Virus record (IMG/VR): IMGVR_UViG_3300045988_054550
Location: 7,976 to 71,975 of that record
Strand: one strand, 5' to 3'
Length of the DNA: 64,000 bases
DNA from: a virus
The notes under the pieces were generated by a model. The model was not told the DNA's origin. It worked only from the letters and a program-made list of their open reading frames with translations, and searched no databases. The position numbers were made by a program, and so were the translations under genes. Shown here piece by piece: positions 3,681-62,255 of this stretch (positions are counted from its first letter, which is position 1; every line of letters begins with the position of its first letter).

Positions 3681-5063
3681 TTATCCAAATGCTACCTGCC
3701 CATTATTCTGCATGTAAATCATCGGCGCAGCTTTTCGCTCTCCGACTTTCAGATACGGGCAATTAGCTTTCACAAGTGCTTCTGCCATAACCGGCACAAC
3801 GCTGTTTCCAATTCTCGCTACTTGTTTTGCAATCGGGTAATTTCTCCATTTATAGTCCCGATCAATAATGTAATCTTTTGGAAATCCCTGCATCACCTTT
3901 AATTCTTCCGGCTTTAGCATTCTGAGAAAAATATCTGATATGATGTATTTCTCTCCATGAATATCAACCAGAACGTTTACCAGTCCGAACCTGTCTTTTG
4001 TGGTAATAGTCCCTAGTGGCTCGTTAAGCACCTGTCCGCATCCTGTTCCATAATATTTGACCAAGAATGCAGATATCACGCCGAAGTGCCCGGGCGATGT
4101 GGTTATTGTATGGAGCGGTTCGTCACATCCTTGACCGATTCCGGTCTTGTAATACTTTGTAATGAATGCAGTTACAAGTCCGTATCTGTTTGAGGTATCA
4201 ATGGTTTTTATCGGTTCAGTCAGCAATTGTCCTCTGGAATCACCTTGTCTGGTTTCTCCATGATACTGAATGATAAATGCCAATGCATCTTTGTTCTTTA
4301 CAATGTACGGTTCTGGATTATCGACGATATATTTTTTGATTCCATTTGCAATGCGCTTCTGTGTTGCTTCTGCCAGTGGTTTCGGACGGTCAAATATACT
4401 TTTACCTAAGTCTGACCAATCAATGTAATCTCCGCATTGCTCGTATGGCTTCAGACCGTCTGTCCCAAAACGATTATGTGTAGGCTTTGGCCATACTATC
4501 TGCTTTCCATCCATACGAAACACTGCGTACCACCTTTTTCGTGTCGTTGGTGCTCCATAATCTGCCGCTACTAATTCCCGGCTATCAAATTCATAGCCAA
4601 TGGATTTCATAGCTGCTATGAATTTGTTATAGTCTTCACCTGCTCTGCTCTTAATTGGCTTTCCTGACTCATCCAGAGGCCCACACTGCTGTATCTCCTC
4701 TACATTTTCCATAATGATTACATCTGGAAGAATCGCCTTTGCGTGCTTATATACAGCCCACGGAAGAATGCGAAGCCCCTGCTTTCTCGGCTGACCTCCT
4801 TTTGCTTTTGAATGGCTCGTACAATCCGGGGAAGCCCACATCAACGCTACGTGCTGGTTTCCGACATATTTCTGCAAGTCTACTTTGAAAATATCTTCTG
4901 TCAGATGCAGTGTTCCAGGGTGATTCGTCTTGTGCATCAGGATAGCGTCAGGGTCGTGATTGATTGCTATATCTACTGATCTGCCGAGCGCCATCTCAAT
5001 TCCTACTGAAGCGCCACCTCCGCCTCAGCCTGCGAAACAATCAATTATTAACTGTTTCTGCAT
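3681..5063 (-). pseudogene. DNA (cytosine-5)-methyltransferase interrupted by in-frame TGA (5025-5027) inside motif I
   Basis: Motif IV-like SPDCTSHSKAKGG and motif VI IMENV are present. Upstream in the same frame: ATG 5061-5063, MQKQLIIDCFAG-TGA-GGGGASVGIEMALGR, which is the AdoMet-binding FxGxG motif. The tracked ORF (3681..4994) would lack motif I. Confidence 0.75.
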
Positions 5064-5505
5064 CTGGCATCACCTCGCTTTCTCCGAACCCAAATTCCTT
5101 GTTAATATCAAAAGAATCAAATTCGATCTGTAATCCCATTTCTTCCTTAATTTCCTCGTATGCTGCTTCAACGCCGATTTCCTCAACATATCTTTCGGCT
5201 TCGGTAATCTTATCGATGAAATTCTGGTTTGCTTTCTTAAATCCCCATGCTTTCTTGATTGCAATTACAGAAATCAAAATATTTGCCACAGCAATATAAT
5301 CTTCTGCTTTCCACAGCTTTTCCTGTGATTCTTTGATAAGTTGCTCTTTAATTTCCTGCTCTCTGGCGTTCAAATATGCTTTAAGAGATTCAATTTTTAC
5401 TCCGGTCTGTCTGGATATCTGTTCCATTGTAAAATTGGTTACATTAAGTGGCGCAGGGATTGAGTTCTTTTGGATTTTTGGTTTTTTGATCTTCAATTTT
5501 CCCAT
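5041..5505 (-). CDS. hypothetical protein
   Basis: 154 aa ORF with a Lys-rich N-terminus. Confidence 0.5.
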   Translation of the reverse strand: MGKLKIKKPKIQKNSIPAPLNVTNFTMEQISRQTGVKIESLKAYLNAREQEIKEQLIKESQEKLWKAEDYIAVANILISVIAIKKAWGFKKANQNFIDKITEAERYVEEIGVEAAYEEIKEEMGLQIEFDSFDINKEFGFGESEVMPDAETVNN

Positions 5506-6780: not shown

Positions 6781-6933
6781 ATGGCTAGCAATTCTGATAA
6801 GACCAGAACTAATATCACGTTCCCGATACAGCTCAAAGAACAACTTGAGCAGATTGCCAAGCAGGAGAACAGAAGTTTCAATAATCTGGTTATTACCATT
6901 CTCCAAGATTTTGTAAAAAGTGCCGATAAATAG
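6781..6933 (+). CDS. ribbon-helix-helix (CopG/Arc-like) repressor
   Basis: 50 aa. TNITFPIQLKEQLEQIAKQENRSFNNLVITIL has the typical RHH beta-alpha-alpha pattern. Sits downstream of a consensus promoter. Confidence 0.65.
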   Translation: MASNSDKTRTNITFPIQLKEQLEQIAKQENRSFNNLVITILQDFVKSADK

Positions 6934-7010
6934 TCGGTGCTTTTTAATTTTCCCTGTATGGTTCCGGGATTTCCATTTCCTGTCTGTTGTGTGTGCTGTT
7001 CCTCCCTTGC

Positions 7011-7280
7011 TTATGAAGTTGTGTTATTTTCTTTGTTATCCTCAATAGCTTTTCCAATACAAGCCATGACTGGCACAAAATCAAGCAAACATTCTCTTTC
7101 TACTGTTTTCGTTCCGCCTTTGTTGTGCCAACGTCCAACAATGTACAGACTTGCATTTGCAGTCAGAATATCTGTTTTCATATCCCAATAGTTGATGTGG
7201 ATTTCATATGCGCACCCCGGACTAATTGGATACACATAAATCCCTAATGTTTTCTCTTTCCAATTTTCAAATTTTTCCAT
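7011..7280 (-). CDS. hypothetical protein
   Basis: 89 aa ORF with AAGGAG RBS. Confidence 0.5.
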   Translation of the reverse strand: MEKFENWKEKTLGIYVYPISPGCAYEIHINYWDMKTDILTANASLYIVGRWHNKGGTKTVERECLLDFVPVMACIGKAIEDNKENNTTS

Positions 7281-7292
7281 AATTATCTCCTT

Positions 7293-8030
7293 TCAAAACG
7301 GGCATAAATTCAAATCAACATCCAGTCCCGGTCTTGCGATCTGCACCAGAACATCATCTCCTGCAACGTCCTGTATCTCTTTCTGCATCACTTCCGGATT
7401 CCCCCATCCCTCTGACAGGTGACATAGCGTTATAGTCCTGAGCGAAGCGGTCTTGTTCACTCGAATAATCTCTTTTACAGTAGATAAACTGCTGTGCCCC
7501 CGGATGGAGTGTTCAAACTTAAACGAATCCTGTTCTGGCGATTCGTCCAGATGATTGCATTCTATAAGGAAGTGATTTATTCTCATGTTCTTAAATGTGA
7601 ACGGCAAATATGAGAAGTCTGTCGCATATATCAGTCGCCCGCATTCCTCATGCGATATCAGGTACGCGAAGTTTGGTGTATTGTCGTGTGGGACGTAGAA
7701 CGGCGTTACCCGGAACGAACCTATGTCTTTTGGTTTCTTTTCTGGCAATCCGATCATCAGCTCCCCAGAGATTGCGTTTACGCTCTCAACCGTCTCGTCA
7801 TTGGTGTAAATCTGAATACCGGACTGCATAAGATTCTGAAATGATTTCAGGTGATCTCCGTGTCCATGGGTCAGCAGACAGCCCGAAACATCTGATATCC
7901 TATAAGAAATTCCTTTTAAAATCTCTGAATACTTGCATCCACAATCCAAAAGCAAGATTTCGCCGGATTCGGTCTTGAGCGTATAGCAGTTTCCGAGTTG
8001 ACTGCCTGTGTTTATCACTCTCATGAACAT
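7293..8030 (-). CDS. metallo-beta-lactamase fold hydrolase/nuclease
   Basis: LLTHGHGDHL matches the HxHxDH motif. Sits next to the recombination genes. Confidence 0.75.
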   Translation of the reverse strand: MFMRVINTGSQLGNCYTLKTESGEILLLDCGCKYSEILKGISYRISDVSGCLLTHGHGDHLKSFQNLMQSGIQIYTNDETVESVNAISGELMIGLPEKKPKDIGSFRVTPFYVPHDNTPNFAYLISHEECGRLIYATDFSYLPFTFKNMRINHFLIECNHLDESPEQDSFKFEHSIRGHSSLSTVKEIIRVNKTASLRTITLCHLSEGWGNPEVMQKEIQDVAGDDVLVQIARPGLDVDLNLCPF

Positions 8031-8045
8031 TTCGCCACCTCACTT

Positions 8046-8666
8046 TCAATACTCAAAATCCAAATTGCTTATGAAATTCACGATTTTCCCATCTTCGATC
8101 ACGACAAATTCTGTAACAAATTCATCAACCTGATTAAGACCAGTTTCTATATATTCATCTTGCTTATCATCGTATTTTTCAAACCATCTTTCTACGCCGT
8201 CATCAACAGAAGTGTTCTTCATTACAAAATACGGTATATCTTCCGATAACAGCTCTATTGCACTAGCAATCTTTTCGAATCTTTCAATGATGTGCTCTCT
8301 TTCTAGCACCGGGATATTATCTTCGGTGTCTCTGCAATAATTATTATTTTGCTTAATAAAGTCTCTTATTGCATTTGCCACACAGCTCTTATCTTTTGTG
8401 AAGAAAACCTGTTGTCCAGAAAATTCCCAGCAAATCCTGTCTACCGCATTGTCACAATTGTTAATTTCATTGTTTACTTCGTTCCAAAGAGAAGTATCAT
8501 GAATGATATTTCTCTTAAATCCATGACTTATTAATTTACTTGGCGGGATATATTTTTCTGTCAAAACATCCCACACAATAGGTGCAAACAGCCATGAATT
8601 TCCGAACTCTTCTATAACCTCTCCTTTGTAATCCTTATCAATTCCATATAAACTGCTATAACTCAT
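8046..8666 (-). CDS. hypothetical protein
   Basis: 206 aa ORF. Confidence 0.5.
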   Translation of the reverse strand: MSYSSLYGIDKDYKGEVIEEFGNSWLFAPIVWDVLTEKYIPPSKLISHGFKRNIIHDTSLWNEVNNEINNCDNAVDRICWEFSGQQVFFTKDKSCVANAIRDFIKQNNNYCRDTEDNIPVLEREHIIERFEKIASAIELLSEDIPYFVMKNTSVDDGVERWFEKYDDKQDEYIETGLNQVDEFVTEFVVIEDGKIVNFISNLDFEY

Positions 8667-51288: not shown

Positions 51289-51837
51289 TTATTCCTCAAA
51301 CAGGTTCTGTGGTGCCGATTCTGGTGCATCAAAATCAAGCAGTTTAAAGTCTTTTTTATCATATCCAAGCATATTCAAGAACGATCTCTGAGGAAATGCT
51401 TTCACATATTTTCGATATGCTTTGACTGATTTATTGTAATTCTCCCTGTATTCTGCAATAAGATTCTCTGTCAAGGAAAGTTCTGTCATAAGTTGCTTAT
51501 AGTTATCAGAAGATTTCAACTCTGGGTACGCTTCACTCACAGCTGAAATTGCAGTAGTAACATTCTCAATATCATTCGAACCAGAAGTCCTTCCGGAAAC
51601 AATAGCTTTTAATGTTTCACTTTCATGCTTATCGTATTGCTTCACACAATCTGCAAGATTATATACCAGATCAACTCTACGTTTTTCCTGTATCTTGATA
51701 TCTGAAGATGCTGATTCCACCTGCTCTTCCAATGATATCGCATGATTCTGGAAACTCTGCACTCCAAAGATTCCAAATATTACAATTGCTATAACTCCTA
51801 CAAGTGAAATTAATAATGCTTTCCATGTGCTTTTCAT
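51289..51837 (-). CDS. lemA: LemA family protein
   Basis: 182 aa. N-terminal TM plus the LemA pattern (IKIQEKRRVDLVYNLADCVKQY...YPELKSSDNYKQLMTELSLTENLIAEYRENYN). Confidence 0.8.
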   Translation of the reverse strand: MKSTWKALLISLVGVIAIVIFGIFGVQSFQNHAISLEEQVESASSDIKIQEKRRVDLVYNLADCVKQYDKHESETLKAIVSGRTSGSNDIENVTTAISAVSEAYPELKSSDNYKQLMTELSLTENLIAEYRENYNKSVKAYRKYVKAFPQRSFLNMLGYDKKDFKLLDFDAPESAPQNLFEE

Positions 51838-51840
51838 GAT

Positions 51841-52483
51841 TTATTCTCCTTTCGCTGGCCATTCAAAGCCAAAATCTGAACGTTTGATTTTGCATTGTGG
51901 GATTCCATCTTTCCAGAATATAATTCCTTCCATATTGCGATTTCTCAAATATTCTCGGATGCCATCGTAAGTTCTAGGGACTGAGATTTCCAGTTTGCCA
52001 TGTGGAATAAGCGTATCAATTCCAAAATCGTACGGATTCCCATTGAAATGTTTTCCAACAGCTTCGTATGTGCCGCACATAGTCGGTTCCACAATATTTT
52101 CAGTACCATCCAGTGTAGTTACATTTACCTTTACCTTATTATCTTCAAGATATCTGTAATAAGCTTTCGCAAACCATTTATCTTCAGGTGCCGGATTTCC
52201 TAAATCAACTTTCACCCAGCATGGAAAATGTCCCGTAACTGGGTCTGGTTTATCCTGACACGAGATTGATCCAAGTGGGACTTTACGCCCCTTTTTGACA
52301 TTCGCATCATATCTTTTAAAAAGGTTTCCATCGGCAATCATGCAACAAGAACCATCCCATTTCACTGTGGCAGTTCCTTTTCATTCAAGAACCCACTCCA
52401 TGCCTTCTGTGACTTCCGGAAGTGTTCTTTTAACTCTATGTCCCTCAAATTCTCGTTTGAATAGTGTTGGTATTTTTTTTCAT
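51841..52483 (-). pseudogene. ATP-dependent ligase-like nucleotidyltransferase with A8 frameshift at start and in-frame TGA (52381-52383)
   Basis: Reading KKIPTLFKREFEGHRVKRTLPEVTEGMEWVLE-TGA-KGTATVKWDGSCC (KxDG motif I), GTYEAVG..GNPY, EGIIFW..CKIKRSDFG. The ATG at 52481-52483 is out of frame by one A of an A8 run. Confidence 0.65.
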
Positions 52484-54755: not shown

Positions 54756-54913
54756 TTCTCTCTTTTCTCCCTGTGCTTCATCTGGCATCCGATCATCTTT
54801 GCTACATTTTCACGTTCTTGTTTTATTCCATGTCCCTGACGGAATAACTCACATTCAAGGATATTTCCGCATTTAGAACATTCGTCTTTAATTTCTTTTC
54901 CTGCTATTTGCAT
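54752..54913 (-). CDS. small Cys-containing protein (53 aa)
   Basis: Hand-translated MQIAGKEIKDECSKCGNILECE... Overlaps both neighbours at the start and stop. Confidence 0.35.
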   Translation of the reverse strand: MQIAGKEIKDECSKCGNILECELFRQGHGIKQERENVAKMIGCQMKHREKREK

Positions 54914-55179
54914 TCCCATCCATCCTGTACCATTCTAGGTTTGTATATTTTTTCAGTATACCCTTCGCCGTTGCATAAGTCGCAAGTGACTTCTTTTTCT
55001 ACGTAATCATCACAACATTCCCAGTATTGCGCACGATTTACTCTTTTGATAATAGTTCCACTTCCGCCGCACTTCGGACATCTGTGAATTTTGTTTCCTT
55101 GCATTAGTTTCACAAGGTCATCAAGAGTCGTTTCTCCACCATATGTATTTCTCAAACATATTGCCTCATAAATTTTCAT
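54904..55179 (-). CDS. DnaJ-type zinc-finger protein
   Basis: Start at MKIYEA after GGGAGGA. CPKCGGSG...CDLCNGEG repeats. Confidence 0.5.
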   Translation of the reverse strand: MKIYEAICLRNTYGGETTLDDLVKLMQGNKIHRCPKCGGSGTIIKRVNRAQYWECCDDYVEKEVTCDLCNGEGYTEKIYKPRMVQDGWECK

Positions 55180-55315
55180 TTTCTGCGTCCTCCCAAAATT
55201 CGCAAACACAATCTGGTTCCGTAAAATTAGCGCAGTGTTCACTGTCGCCGTTGAAACATACCCATGTAAAATCGTCATGTTTCTTACATGTTTTACAATA
55301 CTTTTCTTTTTGCAT
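55166..55315 (-). CDS. small Cys-rich protein (49 aa)
   Basis: MQKEKYCKTCKKHDDFTWVCFNGDSEHC... First gene after the RNA island. Confidence 0.35.
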   Translation of the reverse strand: MQKEKYCKTCKKHDDFTWVCFNGDSEHCANFTEPDCVCEFWEDAENENL

Positions 55316-55339
55316 AATTAACACCTCAATTTAAAAAAG

Positions 55340-55389
55340 TCCAGTGTGCCGACTTGAACGGCATAAATCTCCCAACGAGAAACACTGGA
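55340..55389 (-). ncRNA. tRNA-like minihelix / branched terminator (acceptor-like 8 bp stem + D-like hairpin + T-arm, no anticodon arm) followed by a U6 run
   Basis: Minus strand: TCCAGTGT TT CTC-GTTGG-GAG ATTTAT GCCG-TTCAAGT-CGGC ACACTGGA C TTTTTT. Confidence 0.5.
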
Positions 55390-55438
55390 ACCGTACGAAA
55401 TAAGAGAAAAAGATTCCAATGATTGCAGTTCATTGGAA

Positions 55439-55575
55439 TTGAAAAGGGAAGATTCGAACTTCCATGTACATCCCATGTCCAAAGACACATACTCACCCAT
55501 TAAGATGTACTATCCTCTGCGTCTGCCTTTCTATCGTATCGGGTTCATCACCGTCAATAGTTCCGCCACTTTTCA
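55439..55575 (-). ncRNA. oversized tRNA-like RNA (137 nt): 7 bp acceptor, type-II-like D-arm, canonical T-arm, expanded centre
   Basis: 5' TGAAAAG TG GCG-GAACTATTGA-CGG ... GGAAG-TTCGAAT-CTTCC CTTTTCA A 3'. The candidate anticodon hairpin TATGT-GTCTTTGG-ACATG has an 8 nt loop. Confidence 0.45.
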
Positions 55576-55607
55576 ATCAGAGCATTATCACTCAATGCAT
55601 CAAACGT

Positions 55608-55722
55608 CCATATAGGAGGGGATTTCCACCCTTTTACTCTCATGCCGCCGGCTAAGGTCACCTAAGTTGTGGGTTTAAACCTATGCTACCACAATAGCGT
55701 CTACGTATTCCGCCACTATATG
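55608..55722 (-). ncRNA. oversized tRNA-Leu-like RNA (115 nt): perfect 7 bp acceptor, Leu-type D-arm, aberrant T-loop
   Basis: 5' CATATAG TG GCG-GAATACGTAGA-CGC ... TTGTGG-(16 nt loop with GGTTTAAACC)-CCACAA ... GGG-TGGAAAT-CCC ..CTATATG G 3'. Starts 3 nt after tRNA-Thr. Confidence 0.45.
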
Positions 55723-55725
55723 GAA

Positions 55726-55797
55726 TCGGAAAGGCAGGAATCGAACCTGCGACACATAGCTTACAATGCCATTGCTCTACCACTGAGCTACATTCCA
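55726..55797 (-). tRNA. tRNA-Thr (anticodon UGU)
   Basis: Hand-folded cloverleaf: TGGAATG TA GCTC-AGTGGTA-GAGC A ATGGC-ATTGTAA-GCTAT GTGTC GCAGG-TTCGATT-CCTGC CTTTCCG A. One U-U mismatch and a terminal U-G in the acceptor. Confidence 0.75.
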
Positions 55798-56088
55798 TAC
55801 CGCCTGTAACGGACAGTTCTCTAAAAAGAAACTGGGTTGATTCCCACATCACATGCTTTCGGACCGGATGAAAATATCCAGATAAACATTAACCTTTCCA
55901 TCGTAAAACACATGAACTAGATGGTTCTTTTAGAATTGCCGACTATCACTTCTCACGGACCGTGGTCTCATCTCTCTAAAAAGTTTTTTACGCAAACGCC
56001 TAGTGAGTTGTACGTTTACGCTCATGCGTAAATCCGCCTGAGGCATAGACCGCCTGTATACAAACAGCTTAATTCTAAGCGGATTAAA

Positions 56089-56160
56089 GTGGAACGCCCG
56101 GAATCGAACCGGAGACTAGGTTACTCGTCCCTATCAGCTTTCCACTAGCTGCACATTCCA
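56089..56160 (-). tRNA. tRNA-like gene with non-canonical anticodon arm (loop ACGAGUA, C33; G-A at stem end)
   Basis: TGGAATG TG CAGC-TAGTGGAAA-GCTG A TAGGG-ACGAGTA-ACCTA GTC TCCGG-TTCGATT-CCGGG CGTTCCA C. Acceptor, D and T arms are good. The anticodon loop violates U33 and the variable loop is only 3 nt. Confidence 0.45.
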
Positions 56161-56491
56161 CATAACCCGGAAACTCCGGGTTAGCAATATGTTTATCGTG
56201 TTATGCTTTCCACTAGGCTGTTTTATGCCGTGCCAGCCCCACGGAGTTGTTTTCGGATTTGGATATTAATGTCTTTGTGTATAACAACAAAACCTTTTAT
56301 ATGTCTCTTGAAAACTTCCTGTCCTCAATGCGCGCTTATTGACGACAATTTAACTCGGAGACTGTGTAGAACGGGGAATTATCTTCATCGAACAGGCTGT
56401 GCCGTTACACACCTTTCATAAAAATAATCCACATACATTCATTCAACAGTTTTTTCTGTCCACAAAACGGATAGACAGCATATGGAAGAAA

Positions 56492-56564
56492 TGGAAACTA
56501 CAGGACTTGAACCTGTGACTTGTCGGTTATGAGCCGACCGTTCTGCCAACTGAACTAAGTCTCC
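56492..56564 (-). tRNA. tRNA-Met (CAU; elongator type, or Ile2 if lysidine-modified)
   Basis: GGAGACT TA GTTC-AGTTGGCA-GAAC G GTCGG-CTCATAA-CCGAC AAGTC ACAGG-TTCAAGT-CCTGT AGTTTCC A. Confidence 0.85.
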
Positions 56565-56756
56565 TAAGCAGAGGGTTATTGCAGTTCAAGAGTAACTTCC
56601 TCTGCTGTTGCGATTCTTGCCCTCTCAGTCGCAACAAAGGGTCCGCTGCTCCACAAAATGTGGAAACCATCCGGGACGTTTGAAGCCCCTTTATTCATCC
56701 CCTGATGGGATAGATGGTATTTCAGAGGAACTATATCATGCCAATGATATAGCTAA

Positions 56757-56828
56757 CTAGGCTAGTGGGATTCGAACCCACGAATTCAGCAGTCAAAGTG
56801 CTGAGCCTTACCGCTTGGCGATAGCCCA
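56757..56828 (-). tRNA. tRNA-Gln (UUG)
   Basis: TGGGCTA TC GCCA-AGCGGTA-AGGC T CAGCA-CTTTGAC-TGCTG AATTC GTGGG-TTCGAAT-CCCAC TAGCCTA G. Confidence 0.85.
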
Positions 56829-57129
56829 TTACTTTCCGGGTTGGCGTTCCCGGAAATGTGATATATTCTGGTGGTTTTAGAAAGCATCATAGCTATTAAT
56901 ATTGTTAAGTCCGCGCCAGTTACTTTTCAATGGGCGGGAAAAGTTATTCTCCATTGAGTTTCACCAACGCAGACCTAAGCTACTCTGGATGCCTCGACCT
57001 GTCAGATTCAAAGGCTTTCCCGAACCTGAGAACGACAGGCTTCTGCTTTTCTTGTATTTTCACCCGTTCAATCAGTATAGTGAACAGGGGAATTTGTATT
57101 GTGAATGCTAACCACATTGGGTTCTCCTC

Positions 57130-57642
57130 TTATTCTGCAAAAATCCAATCATCTGCTAACATATCCGCCTGAGATGCAAGCCATCCCATCTGTACGCCGG
57201 ATGTTTCGACAAAAGCAATGGCTTTATTTCCAATCGCATCATGTTCGCAATTTACGATTTTATTATCAGCAGTTTTATACGAAATCCTGGTAGCAAGCTG
57301 AATGTACTGTTTCTTTCCGTTCCATCCTTTTCTTGCAACCTTGAGTCCACGTTTCATATATTTAATTGCATCTCCAAAAGAAAACTCTGATTCGCCACCG
57401 AGCACCGGGCAGTTTGTTTCGTCTGCAATAATCCATTCATCAGACTGCATATTCATAGTGGTATATTCGACCCTCTGAGTTTTCCTGATGTCAAGTAAGT
57501 CGCCCTGAGTATCGCTATCCTGTGGGCGGCACTGAATCATAATTGTTTCTTTTTCTGCATCCCAATACCAATATCCGCCCCATGATGGAAGTTTTACCTT
57601 CGCTCCCTGTTTCATAAGTTTAAATGCTTCTGAAAATTTCAT
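57130..57642 (-). CDS. tandem DUF2829 (Tad2-like) protein
   Basis: Two repeats: MKFSEAFKLMKQGAKVKLPSWGGYWYW...SDEWII and FSFGDAIKYMKRGLKVARKGWNGKKQYIQL...GWLASQADMLADDWIF. Confidence 0.7.
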   Translation of the reverse strand: MKFSEAFKLMKQGAKVKLPSWGGYWYWDAEKETIMIQCRPQDSDTQGDLLDIRKTQRVEYTTMNMQSDEWIIADETNCPVLGGESEFSFGDAIKYMKRGLKVARKGWNGKKQYIQLATRISYKTADNKIVNCEHDAIGNKAIAFVETSGVQMGWLASQADMLADDWIFAE

Positions 57643-61724: not shown

Positions 61725-62255
61725 TTAACGCATAGCCTGTTTTAAGAAAAATTCTAATTCTTCTTCGTAGTATTCTTTACAATATAATTTTACTTTTGCT
61801 TTGTACTTTTCTTTTACTTCAAAAAAATCGTTAAATTGAGAATTTGCTCGTTTTATATTTCCAAGCTCGTAAGATTCCACTTTGTGATTTACTTTGTTGT
61901 ATCCTTTTTCTGGATTCGTAGAATCAAACATTTTAATCGCCATGTATTCAAAATGTCTTAAATTATGGTCCTTTAAATACTTTGGCAATAGTTCAACCCT
62001 TGTTAGAGGATATGCAATAAATGAATTACCACTATCAAAATCTTTTTGAAAAGTACTTGATGAATGTTTTCCCTTTTTTAGACTATATAAATGCGCTTTC
62101 AATCTCTTACATATGTTTCTGGTTGAACCAATATATACTTTTTGATTGTCCATATTTACAATTATATAGACACCTGGGAAATCAGAATTTTCATTAATCC
62201 TAAATTGTTCTGTTTTCACTGTAACCACTTCCTTTCTATGGTTACAGTATATCAT
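61725..62255 (-). CDS. GIY-YIG nuclease
   Basis: FPGVYIIVNMDNQKVYIGSTRNICKRLKAH is a canonical GIY-(10)-YIG motif. Confidence 0.75.
   Translation of the reverse strand: MIYCNHRKEVVTVKTEQFRINENSDFPGVYIIVNMDNQKVYIGSTRNICKRLKAHLYSLKKGKHSSSTFQKDFDSGNSFIAYPLTRVELLPKYLKDHNLRHFEYMAIKMFDSTNPEKGYNKVNHKVESYELGNIKRANSQFNDFFEVKEKYKAKVKLYCKEYYEEELEFFLKQAMR

Follow-up and report, generated by a model that had tools for sequence, protein, structure and literature searches.

Folded and probably selected RNA modules between the tRNAs of an uncultivated human-gut phage

Phage tRNA islands harbour some of the largest and least understood RNAs of the bacterial world, among them ROOL and GOLLD, and Y-RNA-like mimics of tRNA are also found in phages. 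What, then, occupies the space between phage tRNA genes that stand hundreds of nucleotides (nt) apart? The question is raised by a stretch of 64,000 nt (positions 7,976 to 71,975 of IMG/VR record IMGVR_UViG_3300045988_054550), referred to here as the window. The window is a tailed-phage genome with nearly all of its genes on the minus strand, encoding terminase, portal, major head protein, endolysin and RecT. The locus in question is the tRNA island of this uncultivated human-gut tailed phage, an accessory region in minus-strand sense that lies between accessory genes and the packaging module and extends over about 1.65 kb (~55332-56978; all features given below by window position are on the minus strand). 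Its spacers are, very probably, selected and folded RNA.

Exactly three tRNAs are present in the window, all on the minus strand, as the first-pass annotation of this DNA had proposed: tRNA-Gln(UUG) (56757-56828; 61.3 bits with the Rfam tRNA model), tRNA-Met(CAU) (56492-56564; 69.6 bits) and tRNA-Thr(UGU) (55726-55797; 59.8 bits). Each is called by ARAGORN at default settings and scores above the gathering score of Rfam RF00005 (29 bits), the two methods agreeing on the set, and neither finds a transfer-messenger RNA (tmRNA) in the window. The G1-C72 pair of tRNA-Met speaks against an initiator, and the molecule could be an elongator Met or an Ile2-type tRNA; the acceptor stem of tRNA-Thr contains U1-G72 and a U6-U67 mismatch. 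The gaps are wide, with 192 nt from Gln to Met, 330 nt from Met to the first tRNA-like unit and 290 nt from that unit to Thr, in line with the spacers of 190-330 nt reported at first reading. The accompanying remark that phage tRNA clusters are normally tightly packed is a fair one, the gaps in a FelixO1-like array being 2-10 nt.

Could the gaps simply be coding? The first reading saw no credible protein-coding sequence between 55316 and 57129, which holds except at the upstream end, where a gene for a 45-amino-acid (45-aa) protein (MWLAFTIQ...ESDRSRHPE) lies at 56980-57117. It has a Shine-Dalgarno sequence (AGAGGAG), its protein is conserved in relatives down to ~45-50% identity (tblastn) and only 1 of 35 distinct homologues contains a stop codon. 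The RNA island is therefore restricted to ~55332-56978, with this gene as its upstream border. In the other mechanical open reading frames (ORFs) of the spacers, 12-73% of distinct homologues are interrupted by in-frame stops, or indels shift the frame. A 38-aa ORF in spacer 3 (55930-56046) was considered as a gene and ruled out, since close relatives have +1 indels in it and lack its ATG.

The evidence for RNA comes from relatives of the locus. At least 598 were found in IMG/VR through the Tad2-like protein encoded next to the island, the best 80 of which were kept, and a strict island pattern retrieved at least 119 further stretches. All related stretches are human-gut viral contigs, about 40-125 kb long, and 160 arrays share the order Gln, spacer 1, Met, spacer 2. 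In ~25 of the 80 best Tad2-like loci the gene has no tRNA island beside it, hence the description of the island as accessory. Searches of 50,697 phage records (megablast and blastn) revealed no isolate with the island, returning only three unannotated human-faecal scaffolds and generic tRNA matches.

Folding energies were compared with those of 100 dinucleotide shuffles, using four 300-nt coding stretches of the same phage as controls. The minimum free energy z scores are -5.5 for the segment upstream of tRNA-Gln (S0, 56829-56979), -3.7 for spacer 1 (S1, 56565-56756) and -3.0 for spacer 2 (S2, 56162-56491), against +0.4, +1.5, -0.4 and +1.1 for the coding controls. The claim of heavily structured spacers is thus borne out for S0-S2 and is weaker for spacer 3 (S3, 55798-56087; -1.1) and the region downstream of tRNA-Thr (S4, 55330-55725; -1.8): the upstream two thirds of the island are clearly over-structured, and S3 and S4 are not convincing by energy alone. 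Every spacer is capped by a hairpin at both ends, and a hairpin stands 2-4 nt upstream of every tRNA or look-alike.

Spacer 1, with 92 distinct versions among the relatives, is a series of small modules. Directly after tRNA-Gln comes a perfect 9-base-pair (bp) stem (H1, 56729-56754), the slot of which is occupied in relatives by a hairpin of other sequence, followed in some by a U-run. It is followed by a miniature tRNA-like three-way junction of 53 nt (56666-56718), composed of an outer helix (ACCATC/GATGGT), a hairpin (ATCCC/GGGAT) and a T-arm-like hairpin (GGGGC-TTCAAAC-GTCCC). Across versions, the loop of the first hairpin ends in GG and the T-arm-like loop, TTCAAAY, abuts the 3' strand of the outer stem. 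Helices 1-3 of this junction are 98-100% paired, with compensatory changes in 9 of 16 pairs (alignment A1). The junction is cleanly missing from spacer-1 variants of 150 nt, so the modules of S1 are separable. After a variable hairpin there is a pseudoknotted hairpin of highly conserved sequence (56605-56641; CCC-TTT-GTTGCG-...GGG...-CGCAAC-AG), whose stem is 100% paired with 3 of 6 pairs compensatory, and in which 22 columns are invariant; one pseudoknot pair alternates between C-G and A-U (7 vs 16 sequences). The spacer ends with hairpin H5 (56568-56605), 3 nt before tRNA-Met, for which relatives provide at least six stem sequences (GCAGAGG/CCTCTGC, GTAGAAGCA/TGCTTCTAC, CCAGAAATAA/TTATTTCTGG, GTGGAGAT/ATCTCCAC and others). 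In an alignment of 26 sequences, the junction and pseudoknot structure is 99.1% paired and compensatory in 13 of 25 pairs. None of 500 shuffles reaches the observed values, and sliding the partners by 1-3 columns reduces pairing to 31-49%.

Spacer 2 is also supported by covariation, its nine helices being 82% paired with compensatory changes in 35 of 49 pairs (16-sequence alignment), compared with 35-43% pairing when the partners are slid; again, 0 of 500 shuffles attain the observed values. Downstream of tRNA-Met it begins with the hairpin CTGTCTAT-CCGTTTT-GTGGACAG (56456-56478; 96% paired, 7 of 8 pairs compensatory). Domain II (56366-56447) consists of a long-range helix, GTTGAA/TTCTAC, around a long helix and a 4-bp hairpin (56398-56411) with the conserved loop WWACGG; its helix 2 is 84% paired (6/6 compensatory) and its helix 3 97% (3/4). 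In domain III (56303-56362), the helix GTCTC/GAGAC (92% paired, 5/5 compensatory) encloses a hairpin, and the internal-loop strands CGAGTTAAA and GGAAGTTTTCAA are conserved.

The last part of spacer 2 is the core element (56164-56244), single-copy in the window, which combines an H-type pseudoknot, an ultra-conserved stretch and a terminal hairpin. The loop GGCTG of the hairpin CCGTG/CACGG pairs with a downstream CAGCC to form the pseudoknot. This is followed by the 35-nt ultra-conserved stretch (56181-56215; TAGTGGAAAGCATAACACGATAAACATATTGCTAA) and by the terminal hairpin AACCCGG-N4-CCGGGTT, the stem of which is invariant while its loop varies freely. A 52-nt block of the core retains 94% identity in a clade where the flanking coding DNA is only 75% identical, exceeding the conservation of the tRNAs themselves. 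The pseudoknot joins the loop of the preceding hairpin to the 5-6 nt that come right before the core, a pairing kept in seven complementary versions (GGCTG/CAGCC, GACTG/CAGTC, TCTACA/TGTAGA, GGCAA/TTGCC, TCCGGT/ACCGGA, CCAGT/ACTGG and TCCA/TGGA). In a count made in register by a script, 90% of 48 distinct upstream segments can pair at 5 or more of the 6 positions, compared with 34% of shuffles. A 20-base core pattern run against 185,579 species-representative genomes matched once, where about one match is expected by chance, in a metagenome-assembled genome of the Desulfomonilaceae that contains neither the rest of the core element nor any tRNA. An antisense target for the 35-nt stretch or the S1 pseudoknot was sought in the window, and the only match is one of 11 nt on the sense strand (55154-55164), which is at chance level. 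Part of the 35-nt stretch (GGAAAGCAUAACACG) resembles the sequence of the 23S rRNA GTPase-associated centre (GAAAGCGUAAUAGC), presumably by coincidence.

Why would such an element always precede a tRNA or something shaped like one? In 159 arrays the slot 2-4 nt after the core could be compared. In 80 of them it contains a tRNA called by ARAGORN (Met in 50, Tyr in 26, Arg in 4). The remaining 79 yield no call, and 34 of their 35 distinct sequences start with a tRNA-like acceptor strand. This pattern is the one expected if a substrate for RNase P were needed at that place regardless of its decoding identity.

In the window the slot is occupied by TLS1 (56089-56161), one of five tRNA-like units defined by the comparative data, the others being at 56666-56718, 55608-55723, 55438-55577 and 55339-55390. 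The first-pass annotation had counted four such units downstream of the tRNAs; the number was roughly right, although one of the five lies within spacer 1 and the borders differ. None of the units is called by ARAGORN at default settings or scores above the Rfam gathering score; relaxed ARAGORN settings give matches at 56088-56161, 55586-55661 and 55439-55516. No unit has an anticodon loop of 7 nt that contains U33 and a purine at 37, and in the two mini three-way junctions the anticodon arm is missing altogether. These five modules mimic the acceptor/T-arm half and elbow of a tRNA and are without a usable anticodon loop.

TLS1 is found by relaxed ARAGORN and scores 20.6 bits with the Rfam tRNA-Sec model, the gathering score of which is 47. 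Its 8-bp acceptor stem runs directly into a T stem of 5 bp; a D-like arm is present, and the place of the anticodon arm is taken by an arm and loop of non-canonical form. The 16 distinct homologues share the T loop TTCGANT and, at the anticodon position, a helix with a loop of only 3-5 nt, which is itself compensated (CAAAG/CTTTG, CAGAG/CTCTG, CTAG/CTAG). Altogether 9 of 19 predicted pairs are compensatory, including pairs in the acceptor, T and anticodon-position arms (alignment A3). The corresponding loop in the window can be read as ACGAGUA or as a loop of 9 nt; U33 is missing from it and position 37 is not a purine, and TLS1 is predicted to be unable to decode. The 5' acceptor strand of TLS1 (TGGAATG) is common to tRNA-Thr, which identifies the unit as tRNA-derived.

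The first two units after tRNA-Thr are giant, cloverleaf-like four-way junctions. In TLS2L (55608-55723; alignment A4), a closing helix (CCATATAG/CTATATGG) leads to two inner arms, and a T-like arm with the loop UGGAAAU adjoins the 3' strand of that helix. The closing helix covaries among relatives (CCGTATAG/CTATACGG in L109 and L122, TCCGC/GCGGA in the L166 type), the T-like stem is either GGG/CCC or TAGG/CCTA, and the window and a distant variant both fold into the same shape. The cloverleaf given by relaxed ARAGORN at 55586-55661 is poor and was replaced by this larger conserved junction, with other borders. TLS3L (55438-55577), for which the minimum free energy structure is a four-way junction, is built from a 9-bp acceptor (AUUGAAAAG/CUUUUCAAU), a pair of long arms and a T arm of canonical form (GGAAG-UUCGAAU-CUUCC), which continues without a break into the 3' strand of the acceptor. 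It is a block of 137-140 nt that is near-invariant across clades, the T stem becoming GATGG/CCATC in relative L015. The closest relative, L050 (~8090-8120; A4 columns 169-194), carries a 26-nt tandem duplication, TATTGACGGTGATGAACCCGATACGA, inside the otherwise invariant unit.

The last unit is a terminal mini three-way junction (55339-55390), of which 52 distinct versions were seen. It consists of the outer stem TTCCAGTGT/ACACTGGA, a hairpin with the loop GTTGG and a T-arm-like hairpin (GCCG-TTCAAGT-CGGC), and both loops are invariant while every helix changes in a compensated manner: the outer stem switches between CCAGTGT/ACACTGG, CCAGTAC/GTACTGG and CCAGCAC/GTGCTGG, and the others between CTC/GAG and CCAC/GTGG and between GCCG/CGGC and ACGG/CCGT. 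The junction is always followed by a U-run (55332-55338 in the window) and then by the Shine-Dalgarno sequence of the next gene, the start codon of which is at 55315. The terminator scan looked for a G+C-rich hairpin immediately before a U-run, and the branched terminal junction is outside its model. Its terminator-like match at 55413-55439 corresponds to the hairpin TTCCAATGA-N7-TCATTGGAA followed by a U-rich tract (55414-55438), between TLS3L and the terminal unit.

Two further segments complete the island. Spacer 3 (55798-56087), a multi-hairpin fold that includes a block at 55927-55983, is conserved, and 116 nt of it are shared with a distant clade at 81-82% identity; the changes are pairing-compatible and mostly one-sided (alignment A5), so this fold is weakly supported. 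At the other end, S0 starts right after the stop codon of the 45-aa gene with a long hairpin (56905-56978). Its 16-bp helix is invariant in the window's clade and its apical hairpin changes with compensation from CAATGG/CCATTG to GATG/CATC. Next comes a 31-nt block, GATGCTTTCTAAAACCACCAGAATATATCAC (56858-56888), without a base change in alignment A6. The block is possibly the promoter of the island; a sigma-70 scan did no better than chance, with 6 promoters found where 5.6 are expected. The hairpin TTTCCGGG-N8-CCCGGAAA (56833-56856) ends 4 nt before tRNA-Gln. Its stem differs among relatives (GACCGGG/CCCGGTC, GTCCGGGG/CCCGGAC) with pairing retained, the flanking stem positions covarying around a CCGGG/CCCGG core.

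Is all this selection on RNA, or could it be debris? It might be held that the spacers are decaying tRNA pseudogenes, recombination scars, homing traffic and ordinary promoters and terminators, conserved merely because they spread horizontally in recent times. The locus does offer material for such a view. Downstream of the conserved Gln-S1-Met-S2 part, the relatives display a mosaic of cassettes with many indels, in which a second Met, a Tyr or an Arg(CCU) tRNA or a look-alike is followed by Thr(UGU), Ser(UGA), an opal-suppressor-type UCA tRNA or others. In relatives (L004, L008, L010, L012 and L014, ~6840-7445) a gene for a 161-aa HNH homing endonuclease (HNH_3 plus helix-turn-helix) is inserted beside tRNA-Gln, and duplication of the first ~28 nt of the tRNA leaves a complete tRNA-Gln on the downstream side of the inserted gene. 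TLS3L has a 3' end similar to that of tRNA-Thr, with deletions between the two; TLS1 is clearly tRNA-derived, having its 5' acceptor strand in common with tRNA-Thr; and a protein-coding cassette discussed below, 88-100% identical across clades, indicates that horizontal exchange does occur. Pseudogenes, however, would not be expected to show the more than 60 double compensatory pairs counted in total across spacer 1, spacer 2, TLS1 and the terminal unit, nor stems that are conserved while their loops vary, and S1 and S2 are present in essentially all ~160 arrays at a divergence comparable to or below that of the flanking protein genes. Debris is therefore very unlikely to account for the spacers. 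A covariation analysis of homologous loci, proposed in the first-pass annotation, thus finds compensatory pairs in S1, S2, TLS1, the terminal unit, the core pseudoknot and TLS2L. Its suggestion of a new noncoding RNA family is sustained in the plural: ~160 arrays conserve several modules with many compensatory changes, and Rfam 15 matches none of them, reporting only the three tRNAs and sub-threshold noise (whole window at gathering threshold; 55000-57400 at E<=10).

What might the modules be for? The reading we favour, and which as a whole we hold to be somewhat probable, is that of a processed tRNA island yielding trans-acting structured noncoding RNAs. The island would be transcribed as one precursor in which the three tRNAs are interleaved with at least ten folded modules. 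Host RNase P would cut on the 5' side of each tRNA and look-alike, and RNase Z or exonucleases would trim the 3' side. The look-alikes would be former tRNAs kept as processing punctuation and stability handles; such a role would explain why selection holds on to the acceptor and T arms but lets the anticodon arm drift. The products would be the three tRNAs and a set of stable, hairpin-capped noncoding RNAs, namely S1 (~190 nt), S2 (~330 nt, ending in the core) and the look-alikes, and the terminal look-alike with its U-run would either end the transcript or separate it from the downstream mRNA. Once released, these RNAs would work in trans in the infected cell, filling a niche shared with ROOL, GOLLD and Y RNAs. 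The handle function is the more tentative part, to which we give slightly less than an even chance. Taken with the processing scheme as one somewhat favoured reading, the action in trans most likely involves RNA-level conflict between host and phage or quality control of tRNA and other RNA, although any specific role in conflict is doubtful at best.

Several points weigh against this proposal. Co-transcription, cleavage by RNase P and RNase Z at the look-alikes, and stability of the RNAs are all things that we infer. Substrates of RNase P, RNase Z and the CCA-adding enzyme do not typically have an acceptor/T stack of 13 bp such as that of TLS1. The 35-nt core has no trans target within the window. 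Energy scores are weak for S3 and the giant units (-1.1 to -1.8), which are too invariant for much covariation. Since a single phage lineage supplied the alignments, independence of the sequences is overstated in the shuffle tests. Cassette exchange and homing endonucleases, moreover, could inflate conservation, for example of the 137-nt TLS3L or the 52-nt core, through recent horizontal spread.

Processing of this kind has precedents. In phage T4, species 1 and 2 (rnaC and rnaD) are stable, structured RNAs other than tRNAs, co-transcribed with tRNAs, matured by the tRNA machinery and of a function that was obscure for decades; the T4 cluster is compact, whereas the island here spreads three tRNAs and many more modules over ~1.65 kb. 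In mitochondrial tRNA punctuation and in the mascRNA of MALAT1, a tRNA shape that does not decode recruits RNase P and RNase Z to set the ends of neighbouring RNAs. These cases differ in being eukaryotic or organellar, and cleavage at the units of the window would be their bacterial-virus counterpart only if it takes place as proposed. The island itself provides a clean example from a bacterial virus of tRNA-shaped elements in which decoding has been lost and selection retained.

The genes around the island bear on the second half of the proposal. Directly upstream of its border lies a gene for a Tad2-like protein (57130-57642; Thoeris anti-defence 2, PF11195, E 3e-25; phrog_1048). Some 3 kb downstream is a gene for a 174-aa RNA ligase (51841-52365; phrog_14301, E 3e-35; PDB 9c6l 'RNA ligase1', E 7e-7; Pfam RLIG1, 30.3 bits against a cutoff of 25), which may participate in the repair of tRNA or other RNA. 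It adjoins a gene of the LemA family (51289-51837).

In T5 and in mycobacteriophages, tRNAs are known that evade or neutralise tRNA-targeting defences. Alternatively, the look-alikes and tRNAs with variable anticodons could be decoys or sponges that occupy host defence nucleases directed at tRNA, or immune proteins that sense tRNA, while the RNA ligase of the phage mends what is cut. This idea finds encouragement in the adjacent gene of the anti-Thoeris family, in the nearby ligase and in the Thr-type scaffold, which in relatives bears the anticodons UGU, UAU, UGC, UCU, UGA and UCA as well as 6-nt loops, as if the anticodon loop were under diversifying pressure. Those variants are rare, however (1-2 copies each, against 46 copies of UGU), and could be neutral or deleterious. 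TLS1 and both mini junctions are without a 7-nt anticodon loop, the very element that anticodon nucleases recognise, and the non-tRNA modules (pseudoknots, domains II and III) would be left unexplained. The lack of anticodon loops in the mimics makes the decoy idea a weak one, and we regard it as unlikely. As far as the mimics are concerned, the first-pass proposal of decoy or repair substrates for anticodon nucleases does not fit a TLS1 loop that is 3-5 nt long in relatives and non-canonical in the window.

The Thr slot deserves a closer description. On the Thr(UGU) scaffold of relatives, UAU, UGC and UCU are single-base anticodon variants, and 6-nt loops or 3-bp anticodon stems also occur. 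In a distant clade the slot holds a 72-nt class-I tRNA with the anticodon UGA (Ser) or UCA (opal-suppressor type). Examples from relatives are L067 9473-9544, L070 6300-6371 and L083 7690-7761.

Other occupants of the island are larger. Full-length ROOL RNA (RF03087) is found in the islands of five relatives (L017, L154, L173, L175 and L183); in L017 it lies at 4746-5304 (388.6 bits, E 1e-89), between a second tRNA-Met and tRNA-Ser(GCU). The same model, which detects that copy, finds no ROOL in the window (gathering threshold; E<=10), and GOLLD is matched neither in 55000-57400 at E<=10 nor in four relatives at E<=1. Both ROOL and GOLLD are encoded by phages and prophages, often near tRNA islands, and their function is not known (PMC12286853, PMC5737381). 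Phage K likewise produces abundant long noncoding RNAs beside its tRNAs (PMC9241854). The island resembles the ROOL and GOLLD cases in being heavily structured phage RNA with pseudoknots and multistem junctions, placed in or next to a tRNA island. ROOL and GOLLD are single RNAs of 580-800 nt, whereas the window has modules of ~25-140 nt punctuated by tRNAs and look-alikes.

Could S1, the embedded tRNA-Met and S2 nevertheless be one ornate RNA of ~600 nt, an analogue of ROOL or GOLLD that forms a multimeric, RNA-only assembly? The invariant Gln-S1-Met-S2-core backbone of all arrays examined would suit it, as would the several junctions and two pseudoknots, the ability of the GOLLD linker to hold tRNAs and the occurrence of GOLLD and ROOL near phage tRNA islands (PMC12286853), and the fact that ROOL takes a slot in the islands of relatives. 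RNase P and RNase Z would, however, normally cut an intact canonical tRNA-Met out of such an RNA, and the modules can be deleted individually, as the junction is in the 150-nt version of S1; no long-range pairing between S1 and S2 was identified, and the ROOL and GOLLD models do not match. The chances of a single large RNA are accordingly small.

A second large cassette encodes a protein. Within the island of 41 of 202 related loci there is an insert of 1.8-2 kb with the gene for a 484-aa protein of DUF2828 plus DUF7788/vWA domains (for example L009 8140-9594; also L001, L008, L015, L067 and 36 other loci). It is phrog_850, 'RNA-binding protein', and mycobacteriophage entries in GenBank label it 'Ro-like RNA binding protein'. 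A sequence search of PDB with the protein did not find Ro60, so the 'Ro-like' label rests on GenBank and PHROG annotation. The cassette is 88-100% identical across clades in which the flanking genes are ~75% identical, which suggests that it has moved horizontally. Phage records with homologues number 711, and a FelixO1-like phage has the gene right beside its tRNA array; tblastn finds no copy in the window.

Just upstream of the DUF2828 gene, the Rfam tRNA model matches units of 114-120 nt (44-49 bits; L067 7604-7717, L015 7679-7793, L009 7859-7978) that carry an insertion of ~45 nt, an intron or extended arm, and are not called by ARAGORN. In the relatives with DUF2828 these long tRNAs are followed by a 90-nt tRNA-like unit, TGCCCCGG...CGGGGCAA.

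Y RNAs are encoded beside Ro-type proteins, in phages too, and the YrlA RNA of M. smegmatis is cut by RNase P (PMC4201824). It is conceivable, then, that the modules are Y-RNA-like cofactors of the Ro-like DUF2828/vWA protein, together forming a particle for RNA quality control or degradation, and that the window phage has lost the gene or uses a host protein. The position of the gene within the island at 41 of 202 loci, its place against the tRNA array of the FelixO1-like phage and the tRNA-like domain of YrlA RNAs, which lacks a working anticodon (PMC4201824), agree with this idea. Against it, the window has no DUF2828 gene, S1, S2 and the core are present whether or not the gene is, and Y RNA and YrlA models of Rfam match neither the window (E<=10) nor the relatives that carry the gene (E<=1). 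The units here end at the acceptor stem, as in a true tRNA, rather than in the Ro-binding stem of YrlA, and no Ro-binding motif of the GNCGAA type was recognised. With the DUF2828-Ro60 link made by annotation only, a Y-RNA-like function for the modules is improbable to a high degree.

Setting these systems side by side, the island belongs with the structured noncoding RNAs of phage tRNA islands, and its own modules match neither ROOL, GOLLD, Y RNA nor tmRNA, nor, in the case of the look-alikes, tRNA. Fremin et al. (2023; PMC10690425) listed 8,495 intergenic candidate RNAs from IMG/VR on the basis of covariation, including tRNA-like candidates and terminators of gut phages. Some modules of the island may already be among the DNAVirus_N entries of that catalogue, whose motifs of 29-151 nt differ in coming without an interpretation at the level of the locus.

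What does the locus as a whole say of function? The favoured reading, a processed island that releases RNAs acting in trans, draws its hint of a purpose from context: the ROOL and Ro-like neighbours in relatives, together with the Tad2-like and RNA ligase genes, point to RNA metabolism or to host-phage conflict, and they keep a role in RNA-level conflict possible but unproven. A bolder version would see in the invariant backbone of S1, S2 with its pseudoknot-anchored core and the anticodon-less look-alikes with a 13-bp acceptor/T stack a new class of trans-acting RNA effectors of phages, paralleling ROOL and GOLLD. Such effectors could be an RNA-only inhibitor or scaffold directed against host tRNA metabolism or tRNA-directed immunity, the tRNA shape serving both maturation and the engagement of tRNA-binding host proteins. 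We think this extension improbable. Whatever the function, ROOL, the Ro-like gene and the island modules are interchangeable cassettes at one address, beside an anti-defence gene and near an RNA ligase. They amount to a natural 'swap experiment' on the purpose of tRNA-island RNAs, in a lineage with more than 100 human-gut viral contigs, and the small motifs (~35-140 nt) are far easier subjects for biochemistry than ROOL or GOLLD.

A few features of the surroundings remain to be described. The 45-aa protein encoded at the upstream border has a hydrophobic N-terminus and a conserved C-terminal motif, ESD[KR]SRHPE, and it has no match in Pfam. On the other side, the island is followed by small Cys-rich ORFs and a gene for a Bro-N/ANT protein. 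Two small Cys-rich ORFs (55166-55315 and 54904-55278) are directly downstream of the island and overlap in different frames; the second has a weak similarity to the DnaJ-type CXXCXGXG zinc finger and matches phrog_6730. Further away, the ORF at 61725-62255 contains a GIY-YIG nuclease domain (E 5.5e-9) and probably encodes another homing endonuclease.

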